A DNA stretch of 61,096 bases, filler included, from Dugesia japonica (Eukaryota), in assembly GCA_001938525.1 (NCBI GenBank). It is 6 parts of 6 records of this genome, joined end to end, with 100 filler letters (N's around TTAATTAATTAA, not from the genome) between each part and the next. Parts side by side here need not be neighbours in the genome. Positions count along the whole stretch, not along the records: positions 22,321 to 31,495 come from MQRL01455844.1; 5 more parts are not named here. The stretch is one strand, 5' to 3'. How positions within the stretch are numbered: position 1 is the stretch's first letter; every line of letters begins with the position of its first letter. Positions 4,054 to 38,008 of the stretch are shown one piece after another. Both the position numbers and the translations under genes were made by a program. Below the pieces are notes generated by a model that saw only the letters and a list, made by a program, of their open reading frames with translations, was not told where the DNA came from and did not search any database.

Positions 4054-5376
4054 ATGACTCATAGTTTTTCAAATGTAATAATGAATAGATTTGGTGAAAC
4101 ACTTGAGAATAAAAATACTTTTCAATTACTAGAAGCCTTTGATGGTAAAGTAGAAAGTAAAATTAATATTAAATTAAAAATACATGAACATGAAGAAGTA
4201 AAAAATAAAAAATATGATGATAAAGATTTTATTAAAAAAGAAATCCGTGGAATTGAAAACAAGTTGCAATCACAAATTCAAATTATTACTAACCAACTAG
4301 TTGGACAACAAATAACAATTGATACATTAATGGAAAGTAATAAATTACACTTGAGTGAAAGAAAAAAAGAATTTATAAAACTAAAAAGTGAAATGTTAAT
4401 TCAATTTGAAAATTTAAAACAAATCAAAAATATTTATAAAGTCATCTTTATATTTAATAATCAATTAAATAAGCAAGAGAAAAAAGTTGAAGATTTAAAG
4501 AAACAAGTTGAAAAATTAACAAGTAATTTTAGTAAAGAAAAATGTGACAAGTTAATGAAAGAAGTTGATATATTAATGTATGAATATAAATTAAAACATC
4601 AAATGGAAAATGATCTTTTACCTAAATTAAAAGAAGAATTTAAAAAAATAGAAAAAGATCTAGATGTAAAAAAAGAAATACAAATTATAAAATATTTAAA
4701 TCATTTGAATAGACAAAGAAAAGAAAAGAAAATTTATGATAAAGATAAATTAAATTACTTGAATAAATTTTTTAATAATTATTTACCATATAAACATTAT
4801 TTTGGTAAAACCTATTTTAAATTAGTTTTAGGGAAAATGGAAACGGTAGAATATAAAAAAACAATTTTTATAATATCTTCTGAATTTATTAAACATAATT
4901 TACCATGTATTGGAGTAATGATATTAAAAAACTATGATATTCTAAGAAAAGGTAAACTTGAAAAATTTAATTATAAAAATTATTATCTTCTCTTGGATAC
5001 ATTTAAACTAAATATTAAATTAGTCACTGGAAAAGATGAATTAATATTTATTTTTTGTTTTTGTCATAATCCCAATAATGGAAAAGAAACTAATGTTGGA
5101 ATTTTATTTAAAACCCTTACTAACCCAATGATTTTTAAATACTTTAGTTATAAAATAAATACAATTAATGAAGTTTATTTTACTATAAATAAAAAAGAAA
5201 TAAGTAAAACTGAATTTAACTCATCTTCTTTTTCAATATATATTTTTAAAGGTGTTTATTTTAAAAGTTTAGAAATTAAAACTCCACTAGATTATAAAGA
5301 AAGAAAAAGAAGAGGATATGTCCTAAAAAAAGAGATTGATCCAAATGAAGAATACGAACTAGATGAAACAAAATAA
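4054..5376 (+). CDS. Polinton hypothetical protein, N-terminal coiled coil
   Basis: Intact 440-aa ORF, heptad-rich N-terminal half; a positional counterpart lies at 54741-56183 in copy 3. Confidence 0.55.
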   Translation: MTHSFSNVIMNRFGETLENKNTFQLLEAFDGKVESKINIKLKIHEHEEVKNKKYDDKDFIKKEIRGIENKLQSQIQIITNQLVGQQITIDTLMESNKLHLSERKKEFIKLKSEMLIQFENLKQIKNIYKVIFIFNNQLNKQEKKVEDLKKQVEKLTSNFSKEKCDKLMKEVDILMYEYKLKHQMENDLLPKLKEEFKKIEKDLDVKKEIQIIKYLNHLNRQRKEKKIYDKDKLNYLNKFFNNYLPYKHYFGKTYFKLVLGKMETVEYKKTIFIISSEFIKHNLPCIGVMILKNYDILRKGKLEKFNYKNYYLLLDTFKLNIKLVTGKDELIFIFCFCHNPNNGKETNVGILFKTLTNPMIFKYFSYKINTINEVYFTINKKEISKTEFNSSSFSIYIFKGVYFKSLEIKTPLDYKERKRRGYVLKKEIDPNEEYELDETK

Positions 5377-5388
5377 ATAATTTAAAAA

Positions 5389-6075
5389 ATGACTAACCAA
5401 TCAATAGGTGGAAAACTATATCCTGATTTATCTGATGATAATTCTGTTAATGATAATTATTCAACATTAGAAACTATACAACATTTAAAAAATAAATTAA
5501 ATAGAACAAGAATTAGAGATTTTGAAAGTGATTTAGAATGGATTGATGATAAATTAAAACATTATAACAAATTATTAAAAAGATGGTCAAGATTTGTTAA
5601 TGGTATTAGATTTACTGATGTAGGAATATCTACTATAGTAGGAATAGCTTCAGGTACTATAATTTCAATGACTACTTTATCTTTTACAATTCCATTAATA
5701 GCTACAGGAATAATAACTGGAATACCAATAATTTATTCTATAGCTCATGGTTCTTTACGTATTAGTTTAATTAGAAAAAGATTAATTAAATATGCTTTAA
5801 AAATTAAACTATTGGAAGAAACTAAAAATAAATTATTCATCTTTCATGTAAAAGCTTTGGAAGATGATGAATTAACTAATGAAGAAATTAAAACTTCAAA
5901 AGATATAATTAATAATGTTAAAGCTCAACTTGATAAACATTCTATTAAACATTCCAACAGTAATCAACCTGATGACAACCTAAAAGATCAACTTGATCAG
6001 TTTAGTAAAACCTTTCCAATATTAATGAATCAACTTTCTCTTCAACTTGGAAATATAAAAAAATCAACTAGTTAG
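5389..6075 (+). CDS. Polinton membrane protein with hydrophobic hairpin (possibly the adintovirus 'gasdermin-X'-type ORF)
   Basis: LYPDL N-terminus, coiled coil, two Gly/Ser/Thr-rich hydrophobic segments; clear homolog at 56211-56639. Confidence 0.6.
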   Translation: MTNQSIGGKLYPDLSDDNSVNDNYSTLETIQHLKNKLNRTRIRDFESDLEWIDDKLKHYNKLLKRWSRFVNGIRFTDVGISTIVGIASGTIISMTTLSFTIPLIATGIITGIPIIYSIAHGSLRISLIRKRLIKYALKIKLLEETKNKLFIFHVKALEDDELTNEEIKTSKDIINNVKAQLDKHSIKHSNSNQPDDNLKDQLDQFSKTFPILMNQLSLQLGNIKKSTS

Positions 6076-6108
6076 AAAAACTATTAACCCAAAACCATTT
6101 ATTTAAAA

Positions 6109-9100
6109 ATGGCAAGAGTTAAAAATTTAAATGATAATGGGAGTGGTGGTAATCTCTCCAAGTTTTGTGAATTGTGTAATCAATATTTTAGAAGTCTTTA
6201 TCATCTTGAAACTCATTTAAAAGGTAGAGCTCATTTAAGAAAAGTTGAATTATTTAATGCAGGAAATGTTTGGAGAAGATGTCATATTTGTGATATTAAC
6301 TTTGATAATTTAGTTAATTATAATAGACATTTACAAGGACGTAAACATGTTATGAAAGTAGCTGAATTAGAACCAACTAGTTGGAATGATTCTGATTCAG
6401 ATTCTGATTCAGATTCTGATTCAGATTCTGATTCAGATTCTGATTCAGATTCGAATATTAATCTAAGAGATTTATTTAAAGATTATAGTGAATATGAAAT
6501 TGAAACTTGTAAAAAATCAATGATTAAATTAAAAAGATATTTTAATATTTATAAAAATGAAAAATAACCTGCTATTGAAAATATTTATCAATTTAATCAT
6601 AGAATAAATTTTAATCCATTAAAAGATTATTCTACAGAAATAAATGAAATGGTTAATTTGTTTATAAATAATTTTCAAAAAGTAGCAGTTTCAATAACTT
6701 GTTCAACTACTTATACTAAAGACTTTACTGGTGAAAATAGTATTAATACTCAAAATTGGATAAAAGATTATGATGCTCATTCAGAGAAAATAACAATGCC
6801 TAATCAAATTAATGAAGTAATTAATAATATGTTAGATCAGTTATCTGAAGATATTTTCACAACTGAAACTCAAGGATCAGGATGGTCATTTAATAATTTT
6901 AATTCTTTTACAATTGAACTTTCAAATTATGAATCTTTAACTGGTCAAGGTTATTCTCCTTTACCTTCAGAATGGAATAATACTTCAGGAATTTTAAATA
7001 TTAAAAATCCAAAGAATGATTTTAATTGTTTTAAATATTGTATAATAGCTCATCTTAATACTAAACTAGGAGATACAGTTTTTAATTATAAAGATCAGAA
7101 TACATTGGATTGGACAGGAATTAATATGCCAATGGATATAAAAAATATACCTAAATTTGAAAGATTGAATGATTTTAAAGTTAATGTCTTTGAAGTCTTG
7201 AAATCAAATGATAGACCTAAAATACAAAAACTTTATTGTTCACACTTTGAAACTAATCCTTCTCATTTAGTTAATAAATGTAATCTATTATTTTGGAATA
7301 ATTTTTCACAGGAAAGTCATTATATTTTAATTCGAAATTTAAATAAAATAAATTCCAAATCTAATCATACTAATGAGTTATGTATCAATTGTATGAATTG
7401 GAAAAGAAATAAAGAAGCTTTAATTAATCATCAAAAGATTTGTTTAAAACAGAAATCTTCAGATATTAAATTTACTAGTAATAAAATATATAAATTTAAT
7501 AAATTTTATATGAAAAACTGGAATCCATTTACTATTTACTTTGATATAGAAACTTTTAAAGATTCTAATTCCTCTGAATTAATTCCATTTTGTTTAGGTT
7601 TATATCTTGTAAGTACTCATTCTTTAGTTAAAAATATATATAATTCTTTCACAGGAATAAATTGTATAGCAAAATTTATTGAATGGTTATTAAAATTTAA
7701 TAGTATATTTGAAAACTTGATTAATAAAAGTTATCTTTCTATACCAATTGATGATAATGTTAATCTTGATAATGAAAAATGTTATTATTGTAATTTTAAT
7801 AACCATAAATGTAATTATTTATCAATAGATCCATGGACAGGAGCTTTTAGAGGATATGCTCATAAGGAATGTATAAAGAAATATGAATCTCCTAAAAAGT
7901 ATTTCATTTCAGTTTATGCTCATAATGCTTCTAAATTTGATAATCATTTTGTTTTTAAGGAATTATCTAAATCTCATTCTAATAAAATTTGTAATTTAAT
8001 TCCTTTAAATGATGATGTCTACATTTCATTTTCAGTTGAAAGATTAAGATTTCTTGATTCACTTAGAATGTGTAGTGGTCATTCTGTAGAGAAAATGTGG
8101 CAAGATTTATTAAAAAGTAAAAACCATCCTCTTCTTTCTTCATTTTCACTTAAACCATGTAAAGGTTTCTATCCTTATGACTTTGTAACTGGGGAAAATT
8201 ATTCAGAAGTAAAAACTAAACTATTAAATTACTCTCCAAATATTAATGACTTTTATAATGTTTTAAAACAAAGTAAATTATCTGAATCTGATTATGAAAT
8301 ATTTTTACAAGAATATTCAAAATTTAATAATTTAATGGATTATACTTTACATTATTTAAAATTAGATGTATTAATTCTAGCAGACTTTTTTGAGAATTTT
8401 AGGAAATTATCAATGGATAGAAATGAAACTGATCCAACTTATTGTTATTCTGCTCCAGGTTTAACTTGGGAAATTGGTATGAAAGTATCAAAAGTTGAAT
8501 TATTAAATGCTAATAACTTAAACTTTCTAACTATTGAACAAGGAATTAGAGGAGGATTTTCTGGAGTATGTGGAAATAGACATGTAGTAGCTGATGAATT
8601 TCATACTATAAAATGTTTTGATGAGAATAGTTAATATGCTGCTTCGATGAAAAAACGATTACCGTGGGGTGAAATGAGTTGGGATTTAAATAAAACTTAT
8701 ACCAGAACTAATGATAAATTCACAATAATAGATGGTGAAAAAATTTATATGGATTATATTTATACAGTTAATTTAATTTATCCAGAAAATATTAGGGAAA
8801 AAAGTAAATACTATCCATTTCCAGTTGATAAACAATCAGTAGATTTAAATGATTTAAGTGATTATCAAAAGGATTTATTATTATTAAGTAACCAAAAACA
8901 ATCTAAATTTGAAAAATTAATAATGAATCAGAAAAATAAATATAATTATGTAGTTTTAGGACAAGTTTTAGATCTTTATCTGGATCATGGAATGATTCTT
9001 TCAAAACTTCATAGTAAAATAAATATTCCTACTAAATATTTGCTTAAAGATTACATTATTTCTAATATTAATTCTAGAGATGAAGCAAAAGCTAATAATG

Positions 9101-9860
9101 ATGACTTTGGGAATTCATTTTTTAAACTATTAAACAATGCATTTTTGGTAAAACACTAGAGAATGTAAGAAATAGAATTAATTTATTCTTGGCAAAAACA
9201 AAAAAAGAAATATTAAATCCAGTAGCAAAGCCAGGATATAAATCTTCTACTATAATTAATGAAGAAGTTGCTTTAATAAAAACATTTAAATCATTAATTA
9301 TGTATAATAAATTTCAATATATTGGGTTCTTTGTATTAGATTATGCAAAATTAATAATTTATGATTTTGTTTATAACCAATTAAATCTACTAATTCCAAA
9401 TGATATAGTTAATAATTCTGAACAATGGAGAATACATTATAGTGATACAGATTCTTTAATGATTGAATTTATTCTTTATAATCAATCTTGGAAAGAATTT
9501 TCAGAAAAAACTAAAATTAAAAATTTATTTGGTACAAATTTATTTCAAATGAAGGATGAATATCCTGATGAAATAATTAAAGAAGCATTTTTCATTAAAG
9601 CAAAATCATATTATCCTGTTAAAGAAAAGAAAGATTTAAAGAAACACAAAGAAGTAAGTAATACTAATAACTTTACACCTCTACAATATAAAAATGTTTT
9701 GTATAATAATTCAATAATAACAGGAACTAATTATTCTATTAATTCTAATCTTCATNNNNNNNNNNNNNNNNNNNNNNNNNNNNNNGCAATTACTTCATTT
9801 GATGATAAACGTTTTATTTTATCAGATGGAATAACTACTCTACCATTTGGTTATTTATAA
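6109..9860 (+). pseudogene. polB: Protein-primed family B DNA polymerase (pPolB) with two N-terminal zinc fingers and a (DS)n tract; two in-frame stops and one frameshift
   Basis: ExoI FDIET, ExoII HNASKFDNHF and LDVLILADFFENFR. Motif A DENS*Y has a stop at 8632-8634. Motif B KLLNNAF/GK has a frameshift at ~9147. Motif C is YSDTDS. ORF 6109-6567 is in the same frame as 6649, separated only by TAA at 6565-6567. Confidence 0.93.
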
Positions 9861-16854: not shown

Positions 16855-17720
16855 ATGGTTCAGAAGCTGCCAAGTTTTAATATTGGAGATGATTCTGCAA
16901 AAGACTTTCAGCAATTTAAGAACCACATTCTTAATTTAAAGATCGAAGAATTACCAGAATGTTAAGGGTGACTTTAATTTGTTAAGTAATAACTTTGTAG
17001 AATTAAACAAAGTTAAAGATTCGAATATTTCTACTATTACCGAACTTTTACAGATAAAGCAAAATGATCTCTCTTTAAGAGAAGATATTAGAAAAATTGA
17101 GATTTTATTTATTTAAATGTCAACTAGATTTGAACAGCGAGGATAGAGAAAGACTTTAATATTCGCTTTTTTATTTAGATTGAAAGACAAAAAAGTGGCA
17201 GCAGCAGTTCAATTTCTTTAGCCAAAATCATTAGATGAAGCTTATAACTTTGTAAAAAAAGAAGTAAAAAACAAAATTAAGGAAAATCTGAGACAAATTA
17301 AAACACAACATGATTTGTCATATGAAGTGCGTTCACTAAATCAGAAGGGGACATAATTGGAACAAATGATAGCCAGGCTATCTATTGATATAAAGAACGG
17401 AAAAAATAGATATGGAGTGAATAGCACAAGGACTAATAATGAAAGTCAGGATAGAAATATCCATATCAAAGATATTAAATACTTCAACTGTGACAATTTT
17501 GGCCATTTTGTGAGAGATTGTAAAAACCCAATTATGTGTAAAAAATACAAAATGTTTGGCCATTTAGATCGATTTTGCGGAACAAAAAATATGAAAAAAG
17601 TTAGATAAATTAATGACAATGATAGTGAAAATATAGGATTTGACGAAATTAGATCGATTTCAACGAGATCAGAAATGTCTAGCACGGATACCAATCATGC
17701 ATTGAACGAAATAATTTAGA
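16855..17720 (+). pseudogene. gag: gag with two degenerate CCHC zinc knuckles
   Basis: YFNCDNFGHFVRDC and CKKYKMFGHLDRFC; multiple stops. Confidence 0.8.
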
Positions 17721-17879
17721 AAAACGCGAAAACAAAAAAGGTAATAAAAAATAATTGTTATACTAAAGAAGTTATGAATTCAGCTCAATACATCACGGGC
17801 AAGGAGCTATATCAAAGTTTAAAAATAAAAACAAAAAAACACTGATTTCAGAAAATCACTCAGAATTTGCTCAAAATTA

Positions 17880-20800
17880 GTCTTTGGTCCAAGCGAGAAT
17901 AAAACAAAAATGGGTAGCAACACTAATAAATAGTGGGGCAGAATCAAATGTAATGGATTATAATTTATTATGTGAATTGAGAAAAAGTAACGAACGGATT
18001 AAATTTTTCAAAAAAACCGAAAGAATGTACTTTGTAAAAAAGGATCACCTATGAATATTGTAGGGGTTGCGAAGGTTGAACTAGTAATTGGAGAAAAAGA
18101 ATTGACACTAAAATTTATAGTGGTGGAAAACGTTTTCCCAAAAATTACCATTGGAATTAAATCGATGAAAACATACATAATTCAAATTGTGCCACACGAT
18201 GACTGTATGTATATCAGGAATCAAGCTATACCATTTGTATCAAAAGTCTGTGATGATGTAGCGGAAAACTAACAAGCACCATTCTTAAAAGTCACGATCC
18301 AGGTGCTAGAAAAAACGATACTCAATATTGCTTTTTCGCATCATTTTGGATGAAGCTGTAGTTTTAGAAAAGTATAAAGAATATTTTCTACGTGGATCAG
18401 TTGACTGTGATGAATTCAAATTTAAAGACGAAATCTTTGTAGGTTACAAAGATAAACTAGCAAATTTAGATATCTTGTCAGCTAATTCGATAGTGACTGT
18501 TGACAAAGACGGAAAGATTCCTAAAAGACTTTATAATTTATCAGATTCCGAAAGAAAAATTTTTAAAGGCACAAGAATGGGTAGTTTAGAAATCTTGGAA
18601 GAAAAAGGCGAGTTCATCAGAAATATTTATTCAGACAAATTAGAGGTGTCTCATTTAAACGGATTGAATGATAGAATCGAAAAAGAAGACGACATTCTTT
18701 TGGAATATAAAAAAAGGTTAAGAGATTAATATTATAAGATGCTAACATATTTAGTAAATGCGACACGAATATTGGTCATTGTAAAAAACTAAAGCATTAC
18801 ATTGTCACTAAAGAAGAAGCGCCAATTGTTGTCCCCTCTAGACGAATACCGATAAGACTTGAGGATAAAGTTGATAATTTAGTTTCAGATTTATTGAAAA
18901 ATGAGATAATCAGGAAACGTGAAAGCCCGCGGAATGCACCTTTAGTGTGCATGACTAAAGCCAATGGTCACATAAGATTATATGTCGATTACCGGCAGTT
19001 AAACTTAGTCACAATCAGACCAATATATCCAATTCTAGAAACGTCTCAAAATTTTGATACATTGGGTGGAGTAAAGATATTTAGCGTTTTAAACTAATCT
19101 AATGGATATTATAATGTCGAAGGAAATGAGGCAGATAAACAAAAAACACATTCTCTACTAGACGAGGACAGTATGAATTTAATAGAATGACATTTGGCCT
19201 GAGTTCAGCCCCAGCAACATTTCAACGATTTATTCATCTGATATTGCAAATTGAAAATTGGGAACAATGTTTTATTTGTCTGGACGATGTTTTGATCTTT
19301 GGAAACTCATATGAACAACATCTCATTCGATTGGATGTAGTTTTAGCTAGAATAGAAGTATTTGGAGTTAAATTAAAACCTGACAAATGTAATTTTTTGC
19401 CAAAGGAAGTTTCATATCTGGGACATAGAATTACGGTAGAACGTATAAAAACAGATCCAATAAAGATAGAAAAAGTTCGAAATTGGTCAGAGCCAGGGTG
19501 TTACTCAGAGCTACATTCATTTATAGCTTTCTGTAACTATTATAGAAAATTTATAAAAGATTTTGCTTATGTCGTTCAACCTTTAGAAACTATATTGAAA
19601 CAAGACAAAAAAATTAAATGTGAAATACAGCAAAAAATAAATAATTTGGGATGCTGAAGGAAAAGAAGCATTTAAAAAGATACAGATACTTCTAACAACC
19701 CCTTATCCTCTGAAAGAAGGTAGGTTCGTATTAGATACAGATGTAAGTCACAGTCATATTGGAGGAATCTTAAGCCATGTTCAAAATTGAGATGAAAAAG
19801 TTATCGTATATACGTCGAAGAAGCTGGCAAATTCAGAATTGAAATATTGTGTTACTCGTAAGGAATTATTAACTGTCTATGTTTTTATCAAACAGTTTAG
19901 GCATTATTTATTGGGGAGAAGTTTCAAAATAAGAACTGATCATAAATCATTATTGTGGCTAAAAAGTTGGAAAAATCCAAATACATCACAGTATTTTACT
20001 TGGATCACAGAATTAGAGGAATATGACTTTGATATTGAACACGAACCTGGCAGATTACACATAAAAGCAGACTATATTAGCCGACCGGAATGTGAACAAT
20101 GTGAATTCAGACATAATGAACCAAAAAAACGAAAAAATGTGAAACTGATCGAGAAAGAAAATGATGAGAAGCCAATTATTCGAGTTCTAAAAAATTATTT
20201 CACATATCATAGAAAAAAGGAAATTATGGAATATTGTCATAATAATATGAGCCATCCAGGATTTATAAAGACAAAGTAATTAATTAAGAATTATTATGAC
20301 TGGAAGAATATGAGTAAAGATACAAAATCCTTTATTGAAAAGTGCATTCCATGCATAAATTGAAAGAATGGAATAATTTCAAACTACATTCCTGAAAAAC
20401 CTTTTATAGCTAATGAGACTTTTAAAAAAATATGCAGAGATATCACCGGACCATTACCAGAATGTAAAAGCTATAAATATATTTTAGGTGTGATAGATGT
20501 CTTTTCAAGATATACCATGTTAATCCCTCTTAAAGTCATTAAATCGAGACAGGTAATATATAAATTATTTAAAAGATGGATCACTATCTTTGGAATGCCA
20601 AAAATTATTCACTCCGATAATGGAAGTCAGTTCAAAAACAATTTCATGGAATAATTTCGTAAAGTTCTTAAAATAAATCAAACCTTTACCCGCCCATACT
20701 ATCATCAAGGGAACGGCTGGGTAGAAAGAATCTTTAAAACTGCAAAAGATATAATTTATGCAACCAGTTTGAAATTTCTCACAAATTGGATAGATGCCAT

Positions 20801-21345
20801 TCCATTCTTCGAAATAGGTTTGAGAATAACAAACAATGAAACAACTAATTATTCTCCTTTCGAAAAAACTTTTAGCAAACAATTTCAAGCTTATTTAAAT
20901 AACGAGCAAGTCAACTCGAAAAGTTTGGATCAATATTTAGAGAATATTAGAGTAAATTTAGAAAGAATAAATCAAAATTTTAAAGCAAAAGAGAATGTAA
21001 TTATTAATAATAACTATCAAATAAAATTAGCGATATGGTAATGTTCAAATCAGAAAAGAAAGGAATGTTAAAAAAGCGATAAAAAAGGACCATGTGAAGT
21101 TAAGGAAATATTACCTTAAGAATGAGTTACAAAGGAAATAGCTAATTCGTTATGTTAATCAAATGAACAGATTTACAATAGAAAAGCTAGAGGTGAAAGG
21201 AGAAAAGAATCTCATGAACACAATAATAATAAGCCAATCAAAACGAAGTTCAATAATCAAACCAGAAAAACTAACAAGCGAGAGACGAAGAAGAAATCCT
21301 TCTAGAGAAAGACGTAAACCAACAAGATTCCGGGAATTCAAATGA
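17880..21345 (+). pseudogene. pol: pol (protease, RT, RNase H, integrase)
   Basis: PR LINSGA; RT YVDYRQLN, FGLSSAPATFQ, CLDD; RH TRKELL, TDHKSL; IN DITGPLP, HSDNGSQF, GNGWVERIF. Many stops and frameshifts. Confidence 0.92.
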
Positions 21346-22220: not shown

Positions 22221-22320
22221 NNNNNNNNNNNNNNNNNNNNNNNNNNNNNNNNNNNNNNNNNNNNTTAATTAATTAANNNNNNNNNNNNNNNNNNNNNNNN
22301 NNNNNNNNNNNNNNNNNNNN
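22221..22320. other. Artificial contig spacer
   Basis: 44 N + TTAATTAATTAA + 44 N. Confidence 0.97.
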
Positions 22321-22387
22321 TTTTCATTTTTTTGTTCGATGCATCAAATTCTTTTAATTCTGCTCTTTAACGTTCTATGACAACGAC

Positions 22388-22890
22388 TCAAGTCGCATAG
22401 CCTAAGAGGCTAGTGAACTTCTCTTGTATGCAAGTTCCTGTTGCATCCAAAATAGATCCTGCTGCGACCAGGCATGTTTGTACTATTTGACCACTTTTGG
22501 TTTTAATTATCTTTCCTTCACTCATGTGTATTTTACCAGTTGTAAATCCAGATTCGCATTGTTGTCTTGTGAGAATAACAGGTATTACTTCCATACCTGG
22601 GGATATGATTGTCGAATAACTACTTCCTTAACACCAATACACAAACACTTGCATTGTTACTTTACATTACATTATCTTTGTCTTGTAATAATGTGATTCT
22701 GGGTACACAAAATAATTCATCAATTTTCGTACCACTTTCAACTTTTTTGGATTTGCTTCTAGACATTCCTCTGCATCGATTAATGAATATAATGTTTCCT
22801 CGATATCCATATGATCACAATCCCAAGCTTGAATTGCCGCACTTCGGCCCATTAAGAACATTAAAATTAACACCATGAACATTGAATGCA
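22388..22890 (-). pseudogene. env: Chuvirus-like glycoprotein, signal peptide and N-terminal ectodomain
   Basis: MFMVLILMFLMGRSAAIQAWDC...YSLIDAEEC...*CKV...YWC...QQCESGFTTGKI...GTC. ORFs 22667-23026 and 22388-22594 share a frame; the Cys pattern is conserved with 43720-44160. Confidence 0.8.
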
Positions 22891-23001
22891 TACTGCTGGT
22901 TCTTGTACTTCGATTTGTCTCGGTTCCGTATTTGTCGATATAATTCTTTAATAATGCATGTACTCGTTGGTTTAATTTGTGAAGCAAATTCGTTTTTGGT
23001 T

Positions 23002-23223
23002 TTATCTCTTTATTATACCGTTCCATCCTCCGACATTCTTTAAAAACGGTTTGATTTGATCATTTGTTATCTTGACTATTGGCAAGGCGCTTCATTGAAA
23101 TTTCATTCCTGGTTTACAACGGGTCAATGCTATTTGCATTTGTTTTACTAAATATGCAAGTGCCACTAATAACCTTGGAGTCGCTGGACAATTTGACAAT
23201 AGTCCTTGTACCTTTTTTTCCAT
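23002..23223 (-). pseudogene. Bcl-2-like BH1-BH2 segment
   Basis: Manual translation: VQGLLSNCPATPRLLVALAYLVKQMQ...Q*SALPIVKITNDQIKPFLKNVGGWNGII. BH2-like GGW sits at the same position relative to env as in 43387-43572. Confidence 0.55.
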
Positions 23224-26200
23224 TGTTTCTCGATCTTTAAGGGGATATATTTTGTAACTGTTAATTTCGCTACTATTGGTCCTAATATCATAGCTATTTG
23301 TTTCTCGGTTGGTAACGTATGTGCTTCTAATTTCTCCATTATTTATGATGACAATTAAGCCCCTTGTTCATCTTTTGTTGGTTTTCTCCTCGTTGTACCA
23401 CTTGCTGTTGCTTTTTTTGTCAACCTCTTGGCTTTTTGTTCATCCACATCTCTGCATCACACATCACTCGTTGATATATCTCATTATTGGTTGTATCATC
23501 TGTATTATCCGTTGTCGTTTTCCTTTCTTCAAACATTGTAGCTGGTGGTATTATTTTGTCTGCAATTCCATTCAGTTTAACTGATAGATCATCATCATCT
23601 TCCTGATCTAAGTCAACTTGGCTAGCATTAAATCTTCACAATCTATTTGGTTTCATTTGTATATTTGACTCTGACGTTGTCGCTGGTTCAATTTGTGTAA
23701 TTTCGATATTTTCATCATCAACATCATCTTCCCAATCTAAAATCTGATCGATAATCTCATCTTCTGTAGTATTTTCTGCTTTTGATTCCTTAATTGGCGA
23801 TTTTCTCAGTCGCCCTCTTGGTTTAGTAGCTGCTTTGCTCGTGCTACATAGCGTCATTGGTTGTACAAATTATTTTATCAATGTCTGACTTGATCTTGAT
23901 CCTGCTTGTGATTTACCTTTGATCTCCTTGGCTAGTAATTTTCTCCTAATTGGTCTTTCACCACCTACCGTTTTTTGTACATTTTATTTTCTACATTTTG
24001 TCGGATATCCAATGTTCCGAGGATATCGTTATTCAATAATTCCTGATTATTCAATAANAATACGTATGGTGGCTCAAATGGNATTTTAGATTTTATCTAA
24101 TCTAAGTCAAATTTGAAATTTTCGTTTAATGACCATCCGGTTCCACAATTTTGAAGCTAAATCTATGTGATGTCGGTTCCGCTTCTTCACACTTTTCATA
24201 TCTTGATATCAGCAGCATTAATTGTTTTCGCCCTCCATTTACATTCCTCTTTACATCTGGATATTTTGTAAGTTAATGCTCTCAATTCTTTAATTGAAAA
24301 ATCACTTTGTAATAATTGATCCGCTCCACGCTGGCTTTATTTAGGCTTTTCTCTTGAATATTTGATATAAATTGATCCACTAGATCCGTTCCACTACACT
24401 TTTTCAATTTACCAGTCATTACTGCTACCATATCTTGTGACCTACTTAATTCCTGATTTGATTTGTATTGTAGATGTGGCAACTGTGGATTAATATTATC
24501 GACATAATATCGTATTGTCTTTCTACACAAATTCTCTCTAATTAACTTTAACGTATACGGGTTTCTCTCGTTTTCTCCACTTGCAAAAATATCAACGTTC
24601 ATCATATGACCTGGCCATAGGCCTGATCTCTTTACTGGATACTCATCATGATCCTCCGTGATCTATCCTCCACAATAAACTACAATATTCTCTCGTTTAG
24701 TAATTGGTGTATTCTCTTTTCCTTTCGCTGTTTGTTTATTCAAATGCTTAATAATTTTCTTTATTAATTTACCTCAACTTGTCGTCGTTTTAACAACAAA
24801 CTCTTTGCTTGACTCGTCTAGAAAATATACTGTTACTTGCACATCTTGTTTCAATATGCTATCTGCATAGGTTATCGTTAACATATGTATGAGCGTATAC
24901 AACGCTTTTCCTCCAATCATACACAATTGGTTCAATCTGTTTATTACCCCTTGAATATTCACTCTGTCATTTGAGTGTAATTCTCGTAAATTGTTAACGC
25001 TATTTATGCTGTAGTTTGTTTCAAACATTTCCACGGTTCACGTTCGTTTTCNGATTCTNCTATTCGTTCNATTTCCTTGTCAGTTACGATTCTTAAATAT
25101 TCTATTTTATCTATTTTGTTTAAATACACGTTTCTTATTTTTGTTTTAATTCAACTAATTGATTTTTATTCAAACTTTTCGGTTTTCAGTCATCCAATTC
25201 CAACATTAATTCCGTAATTTCTCCTGGTCTCAATCGTAACTCAATTACATGTTAATCCCCTTTATTCAGCTTGTTTCTTTGTTAATCATATAATCACACA
25301 CAATTCGATATTTCTCAAACGTTTTCTTTAAAGGTAATTTACTCAATATCGCTTGCAATTGACCCACTCTGGTGGTTTTCAATTTCTTAATCGTTTTCAT
25401 TTGAATCGTCATGCAAAAATTATTGTCCATTGTATGGATTTTTACCCCAAAATGCGATCTAACGGTTGTTGCTANGATCATCTCCTGATAATCTTTAATT
25501 AATTCGGACCAATTCCTCCGATGTTCCCAAAATATATCATAATGATAGTGCGTATTCCAAGTCAGCATTCTCCAATAAGTTGGTTTCGGAATTAATTCTA
25601 TTCTCTCTTATGTTATACCCACAGATTTATTTATTGGAGCTAAATTAATTATAATAATCCTCATTACTGTCCTCGTTAACAGTAGCTGATGTTTCACTCG
25701 ACTCATTTACACTTCATTCGCCCGCATTACTTGATGGGTTTGCACTCATTTTAACTTTATTTATTATTTTATTCGAAAATGATCTCATCATACAGATTCT
25801 AGCTGGTCTTGGTTGTGTTCTCGATAACTGCTTCTCATTAGCCTCCATAGTAGTTTTAATTAAAACGCTCGATATGTCTGTTTTAGGTAATTCATTCGAA
25901 TTGTTTATCTGTGGTGCTCTCTTTTCCAACAACGGCACAAGATTTTTAATTTGACATTTATTAAACGAAATCATTATACTTTCAGTGGTTCTAAAGTAGA
26001 AATCAGGCCAAATTATTTCGTTATATAAACGCATTCTCAGACTTTCTAACAACGTAATTACCATAGTACTTCCAGGTTTCAGACCATTTTCATAAATATG
26101 TGCATTTAAATCATTTCTACTAACCACCGACACTGGTGTACAAATAATATATTCGCCTATGGGTTTTGGCCATTCAATTTCCTCCAAAGCATACATTTAA

Positions 26201-27130
26201 TTTTTTACTGTCGTTTCTTTCAGTTTTAACACTCGTGGCATATTCCATTTTGTTGCAGCTGGTACTTTCTTCAAGACCTGATCCATCGTAATGTATGCTG
26301 TTCAATCTTCATCTGGTCTCTTAGCTTCCAATGCTTTAATTTTATAATCATCCTCTGTCGTATTCTTTAACAACGCCTTCTAATATTCTAGAATTAATGG
26401 TCTGTTGCTGTATCAATATGTCCTGGCTCTGCTAATTCAACCAAATGATTCATTAATTTCCAATAAGCTTTTCATTCATTTTAATTCGTCTTTCAACAAC
26501 TTAGTATCTCTTATCACTGTTTTGATATAGTCAAACACCTTTGCTTTGTTTTTAATTGGTGCTTTCAATCTTGCTGGATCACTTTTAAATATCATATTAA
26601 TTTAAGCTATGCTGGATTTCTTTTTTATTGCTCCTCTCGTTTGTTTGGTCATTGGCTGCCTGACTTCCTTAACAATGTCTCCCATAGATTCTTGTTGCAA
26701 TTTTCTTACTCCTCTAGTTGTCGTTATTGACTCTATTTGTACTAGCACCATATATTTGTGATATTTCATTTCAAAAGAATTTATTACTTGTTCACTCGTT
26801 CTGAATTCAGAATAATGCTACAATGGTTGTTTAATGCGATGCATTTCTACGAGATCTATTAACTTTACTGTTGTTTTACCTGACCAGACTCAATTTTCCG
26901 ATATATGTGCTTTACCATCATCTTGTTCTATTACTCTGATTCGAGAACACAAAACGTAATCTCTGATAAGCTTTGGCGTTGGTTGTAATAATCCACCCAC
27001 AGTAGTATCTTGTAGCTCAATTTTTCTGGGTATTTCATGATATTTCGATTCAGTTGAATCTTCATCTATGGCTGATTCGTAAGCATTAATCCTATAATCG
27101 TTGTGTTTCTCAATTTGTCATTTTCATCCA

Positions 27131-28200
27131 TCATTTTCCCAATGGCCTGGTTATTTCTCGATTTATTATTGTAGTTTGCATTAGAATTTCCATATCCCGA
27201 TCTTTGATTGTTCTGGAAACAATTTCGACTCGTATGGCCTGGTTTATTGCATGTTTAACACACTTGCTGATTTTGTGATGAAATATTTTTCCATTTTTTT
27301 GTCCTGGCTTCTGACAATTTGTACAAACCATTATTGATCTGCAGTCTCTGGCATAATGTCAAATTTAACCGCAACAATAACATGTGATTCCCTGTGATTG
27401 CAGCTACGCTTNTTGTCTATTTCCTCCGTTGGATCTCGAATTATTATTTGATTTTCGTGGTAGGGGTGTATTCTGACTCGGTAACAGTCCTGTTAATATT
27501 GGTTGAGTTCTGGCTGGTTTGAAATCTGCTATTTTTGGTTCACTTTGTTACTTCGCTTTCTGTTTCTCAATTTGGAAAACATTAGATTGTTTTTTATTCA
27601 TGCTTATTTTATGAGCCATCATGGCTACATTTATTATCATTTCTACTGTTTTGGGCTGAGACAGATTTACCCATTTTTTCACTTCTGAATTTCTAAGTCC
27701 TTTAATAAAAATACCGAACACTGTTGGATCACCTAATTTATCTTTCATTGCCAATTGACCAAATTTACGTTATTTCCAAGTATTAACAGTTTCTTTACTG
27801 CTACTAATTTTATCTCAATAAATAGTTTTAGCTGAATCCTTTAAGTATAGAGGTAATCAATCTGGTGCTCTCTTGTCACTCCATTGACAAGCTTGTATAT
27901 GTATCCCATATGCTGCAATAAAATCATTCAAATTCTCAGGTTATCCATTAAAATAGTCCCCATCGAAGTCCGTTTTCCACTCCAAAATCCGTTTCGATTT
28001 ATGTCCACTTGTACTCCTTTCATCATCTGACAATTTAGNATTCTCCCCGGTTTTCTTTTCGTTACCGGCGGTTGACATGGTATCGGTATCACTTGATTCT
28101 GAACTTGATTCCAAGTAATGACGAATTCTACTTGATAATCTTGACGTAGGTATACTATCACTAACTAATTTAGATTTGTATTGACTTTCCAGATCAATGT
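27131..28200 (-). pseudogene. gag: Ty3/Gypsy-type gag (capsid + zinc knuckles)
   Basis: YFNG*PENLNDFIAAY...CQWSDKRA...LPLYLKDSAKTIY; FIKGLRNSEVKKWV...PKTVE; ITCYCCG..HYARDC; VCTNCQKPG. Confidence 0.8.
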
Positions 28201-29049
28201 CTTCTAAAACATTGGCTCTTGAGTGGTTTGGTTCGGTTATGGTATCAAATTCTCTTTGTACGCCGTCGTTAGACGGGAACGAACTGGGTGATTTGGATAC
28301 TAAAATTGATAAAAATTTGTCAAATTGACGAGACAGTCTGTTGTACGAGACCGATTGCTTTACTTTGACTGGATTGTGTCGTTTAATTACAAATGATCTT
28401 CTATGTTTAGTACTCTCTCTAAATTTATATCGGGATCCTTGATTATCTATTATTGTTTATTTGGTTNGTTTGTAGTTAGATTGGTTTGTTTTGATCTATT
28501 CAGTTGTTGAAAAATTGATTGTTTCTGTTTCTGAAATTAAATAATATGGCCCTACGGCTTCTGCACACATTCAAATATTATTATCGCATTCATTAATAGA
28601 CTACTTTTATCTACTTTTATTTACCACAGATACTTCTAATTACCAGTTAATACACTACAATATATTACCATACTTTATTTCTATTACTTCAGCAGCGCAT
28701 TTGCGTTATTTAATTTTATTACTCAATCGTTTATTATACATATGCAACAATTTTATCTGATTTTGTCATCAGGTATTTTCCAAAAAATTTCAATAATACT
28801 TTCAATATTCACTGTTTTGAAAAGGCTGAACTCAAAAATTNATTCCAATTATNAATCATNCAATTTAATAGATTAAAATACTCCTGTACACCAATTCCTC
28901 GTAATCATTAACCCTCAGCTAGTATAGATTCCCCGGGTGTGCTTTTGACACATTACTTTAACAAACTCTATTAATTCTTTCGTATTTCATTACATGTGAT
29001 TCCTCTGTTGAGTTCATCACACTTCATTCACTAATAAATTCATTCATTC

Positions 29050-29705
29050 CTCATGGAACATTCCCACCTGTTCCTGGCAAACTTTCATCGATGAAAGTTC
29101 TTTAATTTACTAAAAGCCTCAAATAACTCATTACGTAATTGATTAAATCAATACATTGGGTTTCTACCCGACATTTTGAATTGGAACAATCTGCCTGATC
29201 CTGGAAATTTGTTGTTAGGACAAATTTTACAATTAATCAATACTCAATTTATTTCATTTCATTTCTCATAATACAACAATTGCGCCTGTTCCTGGTAATT
29301 TATCTTCCAAATAAACTTACTTTACTAATTGACGATCAATTCATTTCAACTTCACATCTCAAGTTGGTACACTCTCACCTGCCCTGGTAGTTTATCTTCT
29401 GGGTAAACTTTTAATATCAATTGACAATCACTTTATTTCATTTTCCTCTTACATTGAAACAATGTCGCCTGTTCCTGACAGTTTATACCCCGAATAAAGT
29501 TTTCATAACTAATCAATGATTAAATTATCTCCACTTTGCATTGTCCATTTGAAGGACGATTCAATCAATGCACACATCTTTCCCCTTCTCTTTAGATATT
29601 TCAATTACTAAATTTTGGCTATACTTCTTCCTTCATTACTTCACATTAGTACTCTTCAATTATTCACAATGGAACTCTGGCGCCGGTTCTTGGCAAACTT
29701 TCTTG
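29050..29705. repeat. Six dispersed degenerate repeats (core RCCTGTTCCTGG) in the element leader
   Basis: Copies near 29054, 29182, 29274, 29367, 29456 and 29670. Confidence 0.7.
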
Positions 29706-30324
29706 TGAAATTTTGTAAGTTCAAAGCTTTCCTCCAATATAAATTATCAATAAAATTGTCCTCAAATAATTCAATTTAACTCTACCCTCGGATAGTTTTA
29801 TTATTTCTTTTCAATGAACTATACACTCGGATAGTATTATTATTACTTTCAATTTTAACTATACGCTCGGATAGTTATATCATTTTCGACAAGATCTTCC
29901 TTAGTTCTCTTTTCGGTGGCCAACCGACAAAGTATCCGGAACGAATCACTGGTAATTAACTCACTACTCCAATATTTGCTTCAATATATTTCATTTCATT
30001 CCGTTATCATCTTNNNNNNNNNNNNNNNNNNNNTCGAATAAATTTCAGACTTTTCTCACAACAGTTTATTTGCTTTGAACACTCTCTATATGCAGCCGGT
30101 AGTCTATTTTTTAAGCTTCAGCCAGGCGACAATTTCGATCCTCAATTTAACTACTTTAATACTTCAATATATCAATGCTTGAGTCAGTTGACAGTCTATT
30201 TCTACTCAGCTCCAACCGCTCGCTAATGTGAAGGTTCTCAGTCAGAATCCCATGATCTAGCTGATATGTAGCTACGACGCTACCCGCGATCGCATTACTA
30301 AAATAAATTTCCAAATATAAACAA

Positions 30325-30338
30325 CACTACTGATGCCA
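30325..30338 (-). promoter_or_regulatory. Putative tRNA-Leu-like primer-binding site
   Basis: Minus strand ...CCCACA-TG-TGGCATCAGTAGTG resembles the Leu PBS TGGTGTCAGAAGTG, 2 nt after a CA LTR end. Confidence 0.5.
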
Positions 30339-30340
30339 CA

Positions 30341-31284
30341 TGTGGGCTAACTATTGTACTATCTTGTCAACACTGAGTCCTCTGATCGCAAGATATCAAG
30401 GACTATTTTCGGCCTCACCCTCAATTCCCAAAACTCTGTAGAGCTACGGGTAGTTAGCTGTAGGAGTGAGTGTCACGGCAGTTTTCATATTTTCGTCTAA
30501 TCTGCATCTAAGTCTACGGTGGTAATTTCTCCGACCGTTTCATCTGCAGTCGTTCGGTAATTTAACCATAGTGTCCTTAAAGATACAAACAAGGATCCTT
30601 CTCGGTTGGTGTATGTCTTTATAACATCCGCCATGAGCCTGTTTGCGTGCCGAAGGGACAGCTATTTTTCTTTAATCTGATTGTACTTCGCTGCAGACTT
30701 CATCACCTGTCCTTATTTCTTTTTGTTCCTCCTTCCACCTTTGCTGCGCGGCGATTACATCTTTTCAGCATTTTTTCATCATTGGATTGGTTCACTAGAA
30801 CTTTAGATATTACTTAATTGTAATAAGTTTTATTAAGATATATAAATAATATTAATTGGGGAATAAAAAATGTAATTTAAAGTGATTTGCAAAGGCATAA
30901 AATTGTTTGAAGGCTAAAGTACCTACAATCGCTCTCCAAATACACTTTTACACAAAATAAAAATAATGACTAAGTAAACTCGTTTAATTCCACGATTGCC
31001 TCTGCAACCCACACTAAAATGACTAGTCCAAAATTGTGACATACTTATCACCTAGCATATTTGCAACTAAAGGACTAAGATCTCAATTAACACAAGTTTT
31101 ATTAATCACACAGATGTTCGCTTTGATCTTACTCAACTGGCCTCTTTACATCCATGCCCAACGTCTCTCGTATTATTATTAATTCGATTTCTTCGGCCTG
31201 CGGCCTAACTGTTCTTGTTCCCCGCTCCTAAGATGCGAACCAAAGAAGATGACGATTCAGAACTACCATTTTTTCTCGTCCCCA
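30341..31284 (-). repeat. Putative 5' LTR of the giant element
   Basis: Ends CA next to the PBS; contains minus-strand AATAAA (~30828, ~31098); non-coding. No second copy in the window, so the start is a guess. Confidence 0.4.
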
Positions 31285-31495
31285 TGTTTGCAGAGCTCTC
31301 GACGGATATTCAAAAATCGAAGGATTTAACGAAAAAAAATTAAAATTATAATTCCTTTAGAAATCATTAAACATTTGTTTAATTTATGAATTAATTATTA
31401 TTCAAGTCATTCTACAATTATTTATTAATTCAAATATTGAAAACTAAATGAAAGGAAAATTGAGTGCATAATCACAAATACTGTATTCAAACTCT

Positions 31496-33329: not shown

Positions 33330-34017
33330 ATAATGATATGGTTTTAAAAATAGTCCTGTTCCAGAAGCATCTTCTAATCTTTTTTTTAATACCTTTTAAA
33401 ACATTTTACTTATAACTAATGCATCTATTATATTATTCTTTTTCTTTTCTCTAAATTTCATTTTTTAAATATTTATGTATTTAATTTACTTGATATGAAT
33501 TTAAAAAAATTCCTGTTTCATTATATGGATTCATATATAAACCTGTTCCAGTAGTTGCCCCTGGTACATCATTTTTATTAGTTATTGGTGTTGTTGTATT
33601 ATTTTGTATTCTTTTTTTAACTTCATCTTCATCGGCTTTTGTTTTAACATCAATTTCCTTTTCTTTAATTTGTAAATCCATCGCAGCACTCTGTAAGGCA
33701 GATAATTCACTAACATTTTTACTAACATTTTTAATTTAACATTTTTGTTCTCTTGATTTAATTACTGCAGTTGCAACTCCACCAGCAACTGTAGCTGCAG
33801 AAGGTGCTGTTCCTAAAATTCATGGAATTGCTGCCATTAATAATGGAAGAATTCCACCTTCTTTTTTCCAATTTATATTTGCATTTAAATNNNNNNNNNN
33901 NNNNNNNNNNNNNNNNNNNNNNNNNNNNNNNNNNNNNNNNNNNNNNNNNNNNNNNNNNNNNNNNNNNNNNNNNNNNNNNNNNNNNNNNNNTTGTTCTGTT
34001 ATAGATGCTTGAGACAT
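33330..34017 (-). pseudogene. pX-like core protein
   Basis: KKEGGILPLLMAAIP*ILG...AGGVATAV; GTGLYMNPY, TGIFLNSY, GTGLFLKPY. Confidence 0.75.
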
Positions 34018-35229
34018 TTCTTATAATAATTATTTTACTCGCAGAGCTTGCTCAAGAATGATAGACTAGTATTTTTAAACCTGTAATGTTTATTATGATC
34101 AATATCAAAATCTTTTTGATCTAATAATAAATGTGGAAATTTATATGAAATTCTTGACCCTGGATATTTTTCACCTAGTATTTTTAATCTTTTTAAATTA
34201 TTTGAAACTTCTGACCATGATAAATAACCATTTAGAATAAAAGGTTTATAAAAAGCTATTTCATAAAATAATATTAATTTATTTATATAATTTGGGGAAT
34301 AATTAATATTAATTTCATTTAAATGATCATAAAAATCTGCTTTTATTAAAGATTTTCTTTTCATTACTTCTAAGATACATCCTTATTGAAAATAATAATA
34401 TAATGCACTTCTTACTATTATATTTATTTGATTATTACATCTATCTAATGCATCATCACATTCTTCTATTGATGATCCAGTATGAATATCATTTAATAGT
34501 ATAAAAATAATTTTTTGTTTATTTCTTTTTTATCAATTGAAGATAAAACTTTTTTTTCAAATGATGACATTTTAACATTTTTGTTTTTCTGCCTCCATTG
34601 ATTTAATTATTTATTTATCTAGATCCCGATCTCTAGTAATTTCAGAATTCTGATTATCTTGAATAGAGGGGGAAGTTGCGGAGGAAATTTGTGATATAGA
34701 ATCTGGAGTTTCAACGGATTCACAATCTTGATTATCACACATTTCTTTATTAATATTATATGCAATTTCATCTATATCGAGATTAATAGCACCCAAAGTG
34801 TTTGCGAAGGAATTTTCAGATTTCTCGCAGAGCTATGCTTGAGAATTTAAAGTTGAATCTACAAAATCTGAAGTTCTTTTATCAGATTTTTCTGTAAGTA
34901 TTTTTTTAATTGTCCTTGGAATTGCATTATTTGATAAAAATATTTGAAATTTATTAAAATTAGTATTCGATAAATTATTTTTAAAGAATCATATACTAAA
35001 ATATTACTTTTTTTATTTTTTGAAAATTTTAAAAATAAATCTCGAACATAGTCTTGTGAGGCTTTAAAAGGATTGGTAGAAAACATTTTATTAAGAAATT
35101 TTTTAGTTGATTCTTAAAATCATGAGTTGTGATTTTTATTAATTTTTTCAGAGTCAAAATCTGTCACAATGTCTCCAGGACCATGAGTTACACCCCTAGA
35201 GTCGTTGCAATATATTTCATCAATTTTCA

Positions 35230-35945
35230 AAAACATTCATCGAAGAGATCTTCCATTAAAATATCAGCTTCTCTATCTAAATATAAATAATTATATTTTG
35301 TTTCCCAATGTAATGTTACTTGATAATCATATTCAATTTTATTGTAAAAAATATTACGAAATAAATCATGATATACATTATGTTTCTGTTTTATTAAATT
35401 TAAAAAATATAAAACAATTACTATTATTACTAATTGAATTTTTATCTTAATGAAAATATGTTTGTGATATATAAATTACATTACAATAATTATGTCTACC
35501 TCTTGTAAAATATGAATTTTGTACTTCTTGATTTTTTTCATTAACAACATAATCAAAAATAATTAAATTCTTTTTTGAAGAGGTATTTGATAATTGATTA
35601 CAAGGAATAATATCATTAGGTTTATTACTTAATGTTATAAATATACTTTGTTAATTTTTATCTATAAATTTCTTTTCTAAAAACAATTTAACAACTTGTT
35701 GTGGTGTATCTATTAATTCTGGAATTATATTTTGTTTTTCAATACTTGAAATTACATCTTCTTTTGATAAACCATTTTCAAGTCCTTCTCTCATTAATTG
35801 TAATTCAAATTGATTTATTGTTGTTGATTAAATTATTAAATTATTATAATCTTTAAATTCTGGTGTTAATAACATTTTTAATAATAATACATTTTTTCCA
35901 CATCCTGATGATCCAATAATTAATAATCTAAAATTTGATGGAAAT
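35230..35945 (-). pseudogene. Packaging ATPase
   Basis: FRLLIIGSSGCGK (Walker A), NLIIFDYVVNEKNQ, FTRGRHNYCNVIYISQ; contains stops. Confidence 0.9.
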
Positions 35946-36002
35946 ATTTATTATTAAATAAAAAAATTAAGATTTCGTTTTGTCTAATATATTTATTTAA
36001 TT

Positions 36003-36419
36003 TTAAATTCCTTCGCAAACGCCTTCCAAAGCTATCGCGAGGCTCCAGGGGTTTGAGCAATTTTTTGAATGCATGTTCATTAATTTATTTGAATCCATCT
36101 TCATTAATTTATCTGAATTCATGATCATTAATTTATCCGAATCGATTTTCATTAATTTATCTGAAGCTATGTTCATTAATTTATTTGAACTCATTTTCAT
36201 TAATTCTAAACCAAATAAACCAACATTAATTAATCTAATACCAGTACTAATATTTTTAAGAATTTTTTCTTGATCTTCTTTTGTCATGTATTCAGATGTA
36301 TCAGTAATTACGCATTTCTAAAATTTTTNNNNNNNNNNNNNNNNAACTTCTTTATTATCAGAAACTTCTTTTTTATAAGAGACTTCTTTATTATTATTTT
36401 CACTTTGTGAATTTCCCAT
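36003..36419 (-). pseudogene. Small ORF with MGNSQS start and 8-aa tandem repeats
   Basis: ATG at 36419 is in frame with ORF 36003-36287 (one stop and an N gap between). 24-bp repeats encode MxxxS(D/N)KL. Confidence 0.45.
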
Positions 36420-36428
36420 TCTTATATT

Positions 36429-37069
36429 TTATAAAGCAGTTTTTGAAGTTCATTATCATAAAATCTACGTAAAATCTTTCCATTATCTATATCTGTAATT
36501 CCAAATGTTATTGGTTTTGTCTTGTATACTTTTGTTATTATAAATATTTCATTTGTCCATTTAGCTGTAAATCCTTTTTCAAATTTATAATTATATTTGA
36601 ATATTCTAACTCGATCTCCAATTTTAAATTTTTGTTTAAAATTAAAGTATTATGTTCATTTATTATTTCTTTTTTTTTCAGGATTTTCTGAAGCTTCTTT
36701 TGGAGTTACATTAATAAAACTATGAATTGTATTATTATATTCATTAACAACTTTTTGTAATAAATTATTTCATTTTTGATTTCCAACTGATGTAAAATAT
36801 TTCCACATTTTATTTTTAAATGTTTTATTAAATCTTTCTATAACAGCTGCTTTACCTTTATTTTCAGTGGAATATAAATTACTATTATTTTCATTACAAA
36901 AATATTTAAATATTTTATTATAAAATTCACTTCCTTTAGCAACCCATAAATTATTTGGAATTCCATTATTTTCTTCAATTATATTTTCAAATGCATTTGT
37001 TATTGCTTGACCTGTTTTTGAACAAGATATTTCAATAAATGCATATGTAGAATATAAATCAATAACTGT
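36429..37069 (-). pseudogene. Polinton retroviral-like (rve) integrase, interrupted at its 5' end
   Basis: TVIDLYS...LWVAKGSEFYN...KAAVIERFNKTFK...YNNTIHS...KFKIGDRVRI...FEKGFTAKWTNEIF. Confidence 0.9.
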
Positions 37070-38008
37070 TTTGGGGTGAAACACCCCGTTTGTAAAGAAA
37101 AATAAAAGCCAATGGCACAAGACGAAAAAATGTTGAAGAAAGGGGACCGAAGGGAAAGCCAATCAAGAACAACGTAGTTAAAATGTAAAAGTTGTAATAA
37201 TTACATCAAAGCTACAAGAAAAGTAATGAAGAATAATCAGTATGGCTAAATTAAGAAAAGATAAAAATACAAAGGAGAAGGAGATGAAGATCTTGCATCA
37301 GCAATTCTGACCCATATCAATTACAATAATTAAAAGAAATTATGAAATTAATAATAAAAGGCAAGAAACCCATTACTGGGAAATAATTCATTATCAGAAA
37401 ACATTAATTAATTTTAAATAAAAACATAAGTTAAAACTAGTCAAAAATCCGTTTTTTACGAATATCTTGGCTCAGAAAACTCATAGAAGCTAGGTGCAAG
37501 AAAATTTGAGAAGACAATGTATTAGAGCAATGGGATTTTGCCATGGGAAAACGATACCATCATCAGGAAGACCCCTACAAAGATTTGAAAATTGAGACGA
37601 TATACCTTATTGTGCACCAGAATTTATTTGGTGCAAAATAAAACAAATGACTGGAACGGATATAAAAAACGTGATGAACATATTCAGCGAATATCATAAA
37701 GAAGATATTGATTGCGTATATTTTTCTAGAAGGAAGAAAGATTTGATTAGAAAATTTATCGACTCTCTATCCTGAGTCTAATAAAAGACAATGTTAAAAA
37801 ATTTATGACAATTAATTTAATTAATTATTAAAAAAATTTTAATTTATATTTTAATTTATTTATTCTTTATTACTATTTAACATAAAAAATTTTTAAAAAA
37901 AATAAATGAATTTTAAAAAAAATTAAAAAAAAATAATAATAATAAAATTAAGTCTGCGGGGAAATCAAATATTAAGTATGCTTGATGATAGTTGTCATAG
38001 AAATAACC

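Follow-up and report, generated by a model that had tools for sequence, protein, structure and literature searches.

The window, a stretch of 61,096 nucleotides from the planarian Dugesia japonica, consists of six AT-rich contigs of 8.6–11.7 kb each with N-spacers between them, and these contigs hold repeats, namely Polinton/adintovirus-like genes and gypsy elements. The cassette at 22388–23223 forms the end of the contig at 22321–31495, and the site with which it is compared forms the start of the contig at 43387–52400; N-spacer joins at 22221–22320 and 43287–43386 place the two on separate contigs. Elsewhere in the window, Polinton/adintovirus-like stretches lie at 630–9860 (plus strand), 33500–37200 (minus strand), and 54800–61050, the middle one recognized by eye, and they encode a DNA polymerase B (E 5e-21), an ATPase-like protein, an adenoviral protease, a double jelly roll, and a phospholipase A2-like domain. 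An ordinary gag-pol gypsy-like element, decayed and without env, can be made out by eye at 17350–21040 (plus strand).

On the minus strand of the contig at 22321–31495, a fusion glycoprotein of gB type (class III) is represented by its first ~170 codons (22321–22828; Pfam Monjiviricetes_fusion, E 4e-17), in a frame broken by four stops. The start, AWDC, is at 22828, tblastn with relatives reaches 22325, and the frame stops short at 22321, where the contig ends; the end thus falls inside env, and neither pol nor an LTR is seen on this contig. A gB-like ectodomain fold is predicted from a model of the relative P0003 (pLDDT 83.5), which matches herpes gB (Foldseek, E 1.2e-13) and chuvirus-like glycoproteins (E 4e-40), and the piece in the window shares the Pfam family of P0003. 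Immediately before env lies an internal hydrophobic signal or anchor (22832–22876, minus strand; Kyte-Doolittle mean of 2.07 over 15 residues). A like stretch precedes env in all 12 of the long relatives examined, with or without a Bcl-2-like segment, and, since it occurs in relatives that have no such segment, it is to be regarded first of all as the signal of env.

Further upstream on the same strand, at 22996–23223, is a segment resembling Bcl-2 proteins from BH1 to BH2, with RLLVALAYL (BH1) at 23175–23149 and GGW (BH2) at 23031–23023; its frame contains two stops, at 23094–23092 and 23004–23002. The distance from GGW to AWDC is 203 bases, so the Bcl-2-like part and env are in different frames, with a frame change between them. 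The initial annotation had put these motifs and the hydrophobic stretch on the minus strand of a contig other than that of the 43.4 kb site, and all of them were located as quoted. What may be the N-terminal helices of this domain lie in another frame at 23235–23342 (minus strand), where the translation resembles the corresponding part of the relative P0079 by eye; neither of the two profiles described below (three-relative or leave-one-out) gives a score there.

Searched alone, the segment at 22996–23223 has no match in Pfam or among PDB sequences. It might be supposed, therefore, that an amphipathic stretch containing GGW resembles Bcl-2 by chance, and a modest pairwise score against the 43 kb counterpart (reached by 6/3000 shuffles) and Atlas feature searches with two relatives, in which matches were all <0.9 and gave no Bcl-2 lead, are in keeping with this. 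Against it stand profiles from which the segment was held out. A profile built only from P0003, P0007, and P0079 and run over the six frames of the window recognizes 23199–22996 (iE 3.6e-5) and one other place, 43384–43566 (iE 2.3e-8), the next and unrelated match being at 1.2; none of 2000 shuffled sequences reached its score. These three relatives and the two window elements make up a five-sequence Bcl-2-like alignment, A1. A leave-one-out profile scores the segment at 25.7 bits, the maximum among shuffles being 8.6 (0/1000), and each of the five rows is recovered by the other four (0/1000 shuffles each); held-out and leave-one-out profiles thus put the segment at the same spot before env. 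The A1 profile, searched against PDB sequences, matches Bcl-xL at E 6.7e-5 across BH1–BH2 and reaches 126 sequences at E<=1; among the matches listed (60 of the 126), all are Bcl-xL or Bcl-2. Pfam Bcl-2 itself matches four of the five members, the best at E 2.2e-5, below the curated cut-off, and a BCL2-like motif at this position is described in the account of planarian retroelements in PMC6431247. Given the held-out and leave-one-out profiles and the A1 match to Bcl-xL, sequence comparison argues that the Bcl-2 homology is remote yet real, and the chance explanation, largely refuted, is very improbable.

As a test of the fold, structure models are weak. The model of P0079 is all-helical with the expected helix pattern, at low confidence (pLDDT 57), and the first 33 rows of its Foldseek search are Bcl-2-family proteins, yet none is under E 0.2. 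A wide structure search with the same low-confidence model placed BHRF1 19th (Z 5.9, rmsd 4.2, 112 residues aligned) among generic helical proteins; this search gave nothing at Z>=8 and is not discriminating.

The five Bcl-2-like segments share only 16–34% pairwise identity, and throughout them GGW and one Asn are invariant; the expectation that GGW would be conserved in other members was borne out (5/5). The NWGR motif of BH1 is degenerate in all five, its W-G being replaced and its basic residue kept. In NWGR the glycine is important for binding. Canonical BH3 binding is therefore doubtful, the W-G of NWGR having been replaced in every member. This degeneracy suits the idea that the element is the same but its Bcl-2 fold is a scaffold for blocking signalling, innate-immune or other, and does not act on apoptosis, as has been reported for some vaccinia Bcl-2-like proteins; vaccinia A49, for example, is reported as a case of the fold without the function (PMC4358236), and other modules that meddle with the host occur in these elements (ankyrin repeats in the relative P0152; BIR, MATH, and ubiquitin-like modules in Burro, according to the description in PMC6431247). 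The basic residue of BH1 and the GGW of BH2 are retained, however, and poxviral proteins devoid of recognizable BH motifs can bind Bak, Bax, and Bim, as stated in PMC11209288. A scaffold of this kind is possible, but we would not expect it.

Upstream of the cassette, and again on the minus strand, the capsid N-terminal part of a gag, broken by stops, lies at 27812–27955 (three-relative gag profile, iE 3.7e-6; tblastn with P0002, E 0.001), followed at 27213–27388 by CCHC zinc knuckles, of which two are scored (Pfam zf-CCHC, E 4e-4 and 0.015) and a third, between them, is seen by eye only. Between the knuckles and the cassette are ~4 kb of decayed frames with candidate ubiquitin-like and E2-like resemblances. 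A possible ubiquitin/SUMO-like module at 24570–24851 (minus strand; Pfam RA_2, E 0.035) has no support among PDB sequences, and the ubiquitin-like profile of the relatives does not find it. Further on, at 24200–23940 (minus strand), upstream of an acidic region, an E2/UBC-like motif, PFEPP, is seen by eye and has no library match. The SUMO-like and E2-like (UBC) resemblances are visible by eye, and database comparisons gave no confirmation. Pfam gave no MATH match, and BIR and ankyrin modules were likewise not detected in the window elements. A 131-base direct repeat (70% identity) at 29222–29536, upstream of gag, is perhaps part of a non-coding region of the element.

The second element, on the plus strand, begins inside its Bcl-2-like segment, of which the contig holds the C-terminal half (43387–43566; Pfam Bcl-2, E 0.006; three-relative profile as above). 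The signal, the env ectodomain, and a transmembrane part follow at 43669–45670, matching Monjiviricetes_fusion in three pieces (E 3.6e-6, 4.3e-38, and 1.2e-9) and interrupted by N gaps as well as by stops and shifts of frame. Pol, in the gypsy order of protease, RT, and integrase, occupies 45786–49300 (Pfam protease, E 0.003; RVT_1, E 2e-30; Integrase_H2C2, E 3e-19; rve, E 2e-9); its RNase H region is broken, and the integrase tail carries a GPY motif. After the integrase, at 49310–49820 (plus strand), are a second hydrophobic signal and Thr/Lys-rich repeats, possibly a second surface protein; by eye, the ends of P0005, P0008, P0152, and P0156 likewise show a stretch resembling a signal and, late in the protein, a transmembrane segment. 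A long frame past the integrase contains, at 51100–51470 (plus strand), a DEDDh exonuclease-like stretch (ISG20, E 0.023; SDN1, E 0.42); something resembling it is seen by eye between gag and env in P0079, and it is absent from the Burro modules named in PMC6431247.

The initial annotation had described the cassette as a highly diverged copy of that at 43 kb, aligning with 43725–43825. The glycoprotein starts do align, at a score of 104, where the best of the shuffles reaches 58 (0/3000; 25/87 identical), and the Bcl-2-like parts do so modestly (score 42, 14/60 identical); the linker and signal, aligned alone, do not do so significantly (83/3000 shuffles). At the DNA level, the local score is 37 against a maximum of 33 in 200 shuffles, and this similarity, being near chance, makes the word “copy” too strong. 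Comparison of the translated sequences indicates instead that the two are separate subfamilies, 29% identical in env, each present in high copy. The stretch at 22388–23223 matched 561 and 634 contigs in two runs, most of them 90–95% alike or less, and the 43 kb stretch matched 2957 contigs of the same organism, the summed depth of matched contigs not being equivalent to copy number. RNA reads for the stretch at 22388–23223 numbered 15 in X13 and none in X16, and for the 43 kb stretch 21 in X14 and none in two other runs; nearly all of these reads are <95% alike, and no control stretch attests the organism in the empty runs, so that the counts do not decide on expression.

The order gag, accessory region, Bcl-2-like segment, signal, env, and pol is obtained by combining the two elements: gag to env is seen at 22321–31495 and env to pol at 43–49 kb, no single contig showing all three. 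Direct observation covers the domains, their order along these contigs, the places where frames are broken, and the high number of copies.

Relatives in the databases fit into this scheme. A search with the 43 kb env against 1.84 billion representative proteins returned 655 at E<=0.001, and the best of the 150 listed are polyproteins of great length, in which env is either preceded by gag or followed by proteases and RT. In 14 stored proteins the start motif of env was located further than 60 residues in from the N-terminus, and three of these, P0003, P0007, and P0079, have GGW shortly before the signal. The same three, together with the window's own piece, are the only ones to score with the Bcl-2-like profile across 158 stored proteins. 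In each of the three relatives, the Bcl-2-like segment, signal, and env occupy one open frame, with GGW 51–81 residues ahead of the env start, and in P0007 the frame continues into proteases after env; none of the three extends as far as RT. P0152 is a fused frame of 4844 aa without a Bcl-2-like segment; it also has ankyrin repeats and C2H2 fingers, and several aspartic-protease domains per polyprotein occur in P0005, P0009, and P0152 (up to seven stretches in the last). The label “Flavobacteriaceae bacterium” on P0008 was rejected as its host, the protein being an env-pol polyprotein that most likely comes from animal DNA binned with a metagenome. Word-based searches extended the set no further: env against longer proteins gave 0/802 candidates, A1 against longer proteins gave, among 7992, nothing beyond the three members it was built with, and A1 against short proteins gave 0/399. 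P0079 against metagenome contigs produced 46 pattern matches, none confirmed as a locus.

The history of the segment was followed on a tree of the env N-terminus with 23 rows, five short rows in which the start motif was not found having been dropped. The five carriers all belong to a single ten-row clade (support 95/92), the inner order of which is mostly unresolved; the place of the 22388–23223 copy within it is unsure because of its long branch (1.75). The earlier claim of an old trait in a diversified lineage agrees with this placement and with the divergence and shared GGW described above. The other five rows of the clade have no segment, and one of them, P0156, is sister to a carrier, P0003 (98/98); P0148 and P0150, included in the count of long rows that have no segment, are outside the retroelement clade. 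Presence of the segment needs three changes on the tree, two of them forced by supported branches, and the clustering of the carriers does not clearly exceed that of labels shuffled over the tree (31/500). The Bcl-2-like domain was probably captured once, early in the clade, and lost in several sublineages, although several independent gains may have occurred instead. The initial annotation had set the old trait against a one-off capture; this opposition is not demonstrated, and the absence of the segment from half of the clade fits one ancient capture followed by losses.

It had also called the cassette selected, and here the two families part. Codon positions were scored on differences to other genomic copies, taking the 40 best-supported rows out of totals of 65 and 192. 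For the 43 kb family, 27/40 differences are at third codon positions (p 1e-5), as are 5/6 in the Bcl-2-like part (p 0.018), both among the best-supported rows listed. In the 22388–23223 copy the figure is 3/20, the other 20 listed rows lying outside the two frames counted. The contrast between these counts is suggestive of a 43 kb family that diverged while selection acted on its frame and of decay after insertion in the 22388–23223 copy, the rows being in both cases a selected subset. The 22388–23223 copy is dead. These results also bear on whether the Bcl-2-like segment is a passenger, a captured host-gene relic whose only use is that of a folded spacer or a source for the signal of env, with no Bcl-2-type activity. 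Its loss from half of the clade and the low identity among its members would be expected of such a relic. On the other hand, GGW and the one Asn have stayed invariant despite the divergence, and the third-position bias in the 43 kb family extends into the Bcl-2-like part, even if in-frame parts of a polyprotein show some bias anyway. A passenger is, on this evidence, improbable.

The layout has a published counterpart. Burro elements, reviewed by Arkhipova and Yushenova in 2019 (PMC6431247), are giant LTR retrotransposons of gypsy-like type that occur in dugesiid planarians (GYPSM1, Jurka 2007; Grohme et al. 2018). According to this review, their gag has two or three knuckles and is followed by MATH, ubiquitin/SUMO-like, and BCL2 modules, BIR being carried as well; an env matching mononegavirus fusion glycoproteins lies in frame between gag and pol and is followed by protease, RT, RNase H, and integrase. 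The review attributes recognition of the BCL2-like motif to Grohme et al. 2018, describes decaying Burro fragments with stops and frame changes in Dugesia japonica, and rates the anti-death idea as worth testing. The window elements have in common with Burro, as described there, the gag with CCHC knuckles, the Bcl-2-like part directly before env, and env between gag and pol; the Burro pol order (gypsy: protease, RT, integrase) is matched by the 43 kb element only. Burro exceeds 30 kb and has LTRs and one frame of ~5000 residues, features beyond the reach of broken copies on ~9 kb contigs; its MATH, BIR, and ankyrin modules were not detected in the window elements. Judged by layout and published description, the element at 22388–23223 is very probably of the Burro type.

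Other known systems resemble parts of it. Chary and Hayashi (eLife 2026; PMC13524379) describe gag-env-pol elements with a gB-type env in flatworms, bryozoans, and nematodes, among them six from Schmidtea, Smed_errantivirus_1 to 6, reported with an HSV/gB-type env and an internal signal; the word Bcl has no occurrence in the main text or the seven supplements of that paper. By eye, in the sequences available from it, the env of Smed_errantivirus_3 is closest to the 43 kb env and those of Smed_errantivirus_5 and 6 to the env at 22388–23223. The env position, the gB-type fold, and the internal signal are shared; the window elements are diverged and broken. Anakin, as presented in PMC12440569, is a BEL/Pao element with a chuvirus-derived envelope gene, described as a separate capture. 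Troyka, in the same account, has neither env nor a GPY/F motif, and identity with it was rejected, env being present and GPY standing in the 43 kb integrase tail. The viral Bcl-2 proteins of large DNA viruses, as treated in PMC11209288, are likewise diverged, end in a C-terminal hydrophobic stretch, and belong to parasites of animal cells; unlike these, the window domain is inside a retroelement polyprotein, is fused to env's signal, and does not keep NWGR. A literature search found no functional test of the Bcl-2-like domain of these elements, and a word search of the accessible text of PMC11410931 and PMC8532177 added nothing on this domain.

The reading that we favor, and consider likely, is that of a decayed Ty3/gypsy-type element encoding gag, a Bcl-2-like domain, a signal, a gB-type env, and pol, in which the Bcl-2-like domain likely dampened the death of the host cell. 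An intact member would be translated as one long polyprotein. The hydrophobic stretch, 1–9 residues ahead of the env start, would thread env into the ER as an internal signal, and cleavage after it would leave env in the lumen, while the Bcl-2-like domain would stay cytosolic, held to the membrane by an anchor at its C-terminus. Use of the stretch by both parts is possible, although its presence in relatives that have no Bcl-2-like segment gives no ground for deriving it from a Bcl-2 tail. This would be the topology of cellular Bcl-2 proteins, many of which, as outlined in PMC11209288, consist of a cytosolic domain on such an anchor. The cytosolic domain could then bind pro-death BH3 proteins and so keep the producing cell alive. 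Delaying the death of that cell is the likeliest single role for the domain; taken by itself, however, this putative anti-death function is one that we would accept or doubt with equal readiness. A more specific proposal, which is tentative and rather less likely than its denial, is that there was a single capture at the root of a deep clade of flatworm gag-env-pol elements, that the env signal doubles as the tail anchor, and that a viral Bcl-2 without NWGR, made 1:1 with the fusogen, blocks the death of stem or germ cells producing particles. If this proposal is true, it would provide a working viral Bcl-2 outside the large DNA viruses.

Since the layout was already published, the finding itself adds little to it. 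What it does add is two more subfamilies of that layout, diverged and decayed, and a sense of its breadth: the Bcl-2-like segment spans env lineages that share only ~30% identity, half of the clade does not have it, and it is without NWGR throughout. If its function is indeed anti-death, a viral Bcl-2 carried by a retroelement would give a way into the question of how elements of this kind last in animals whose cells turn over heavily.
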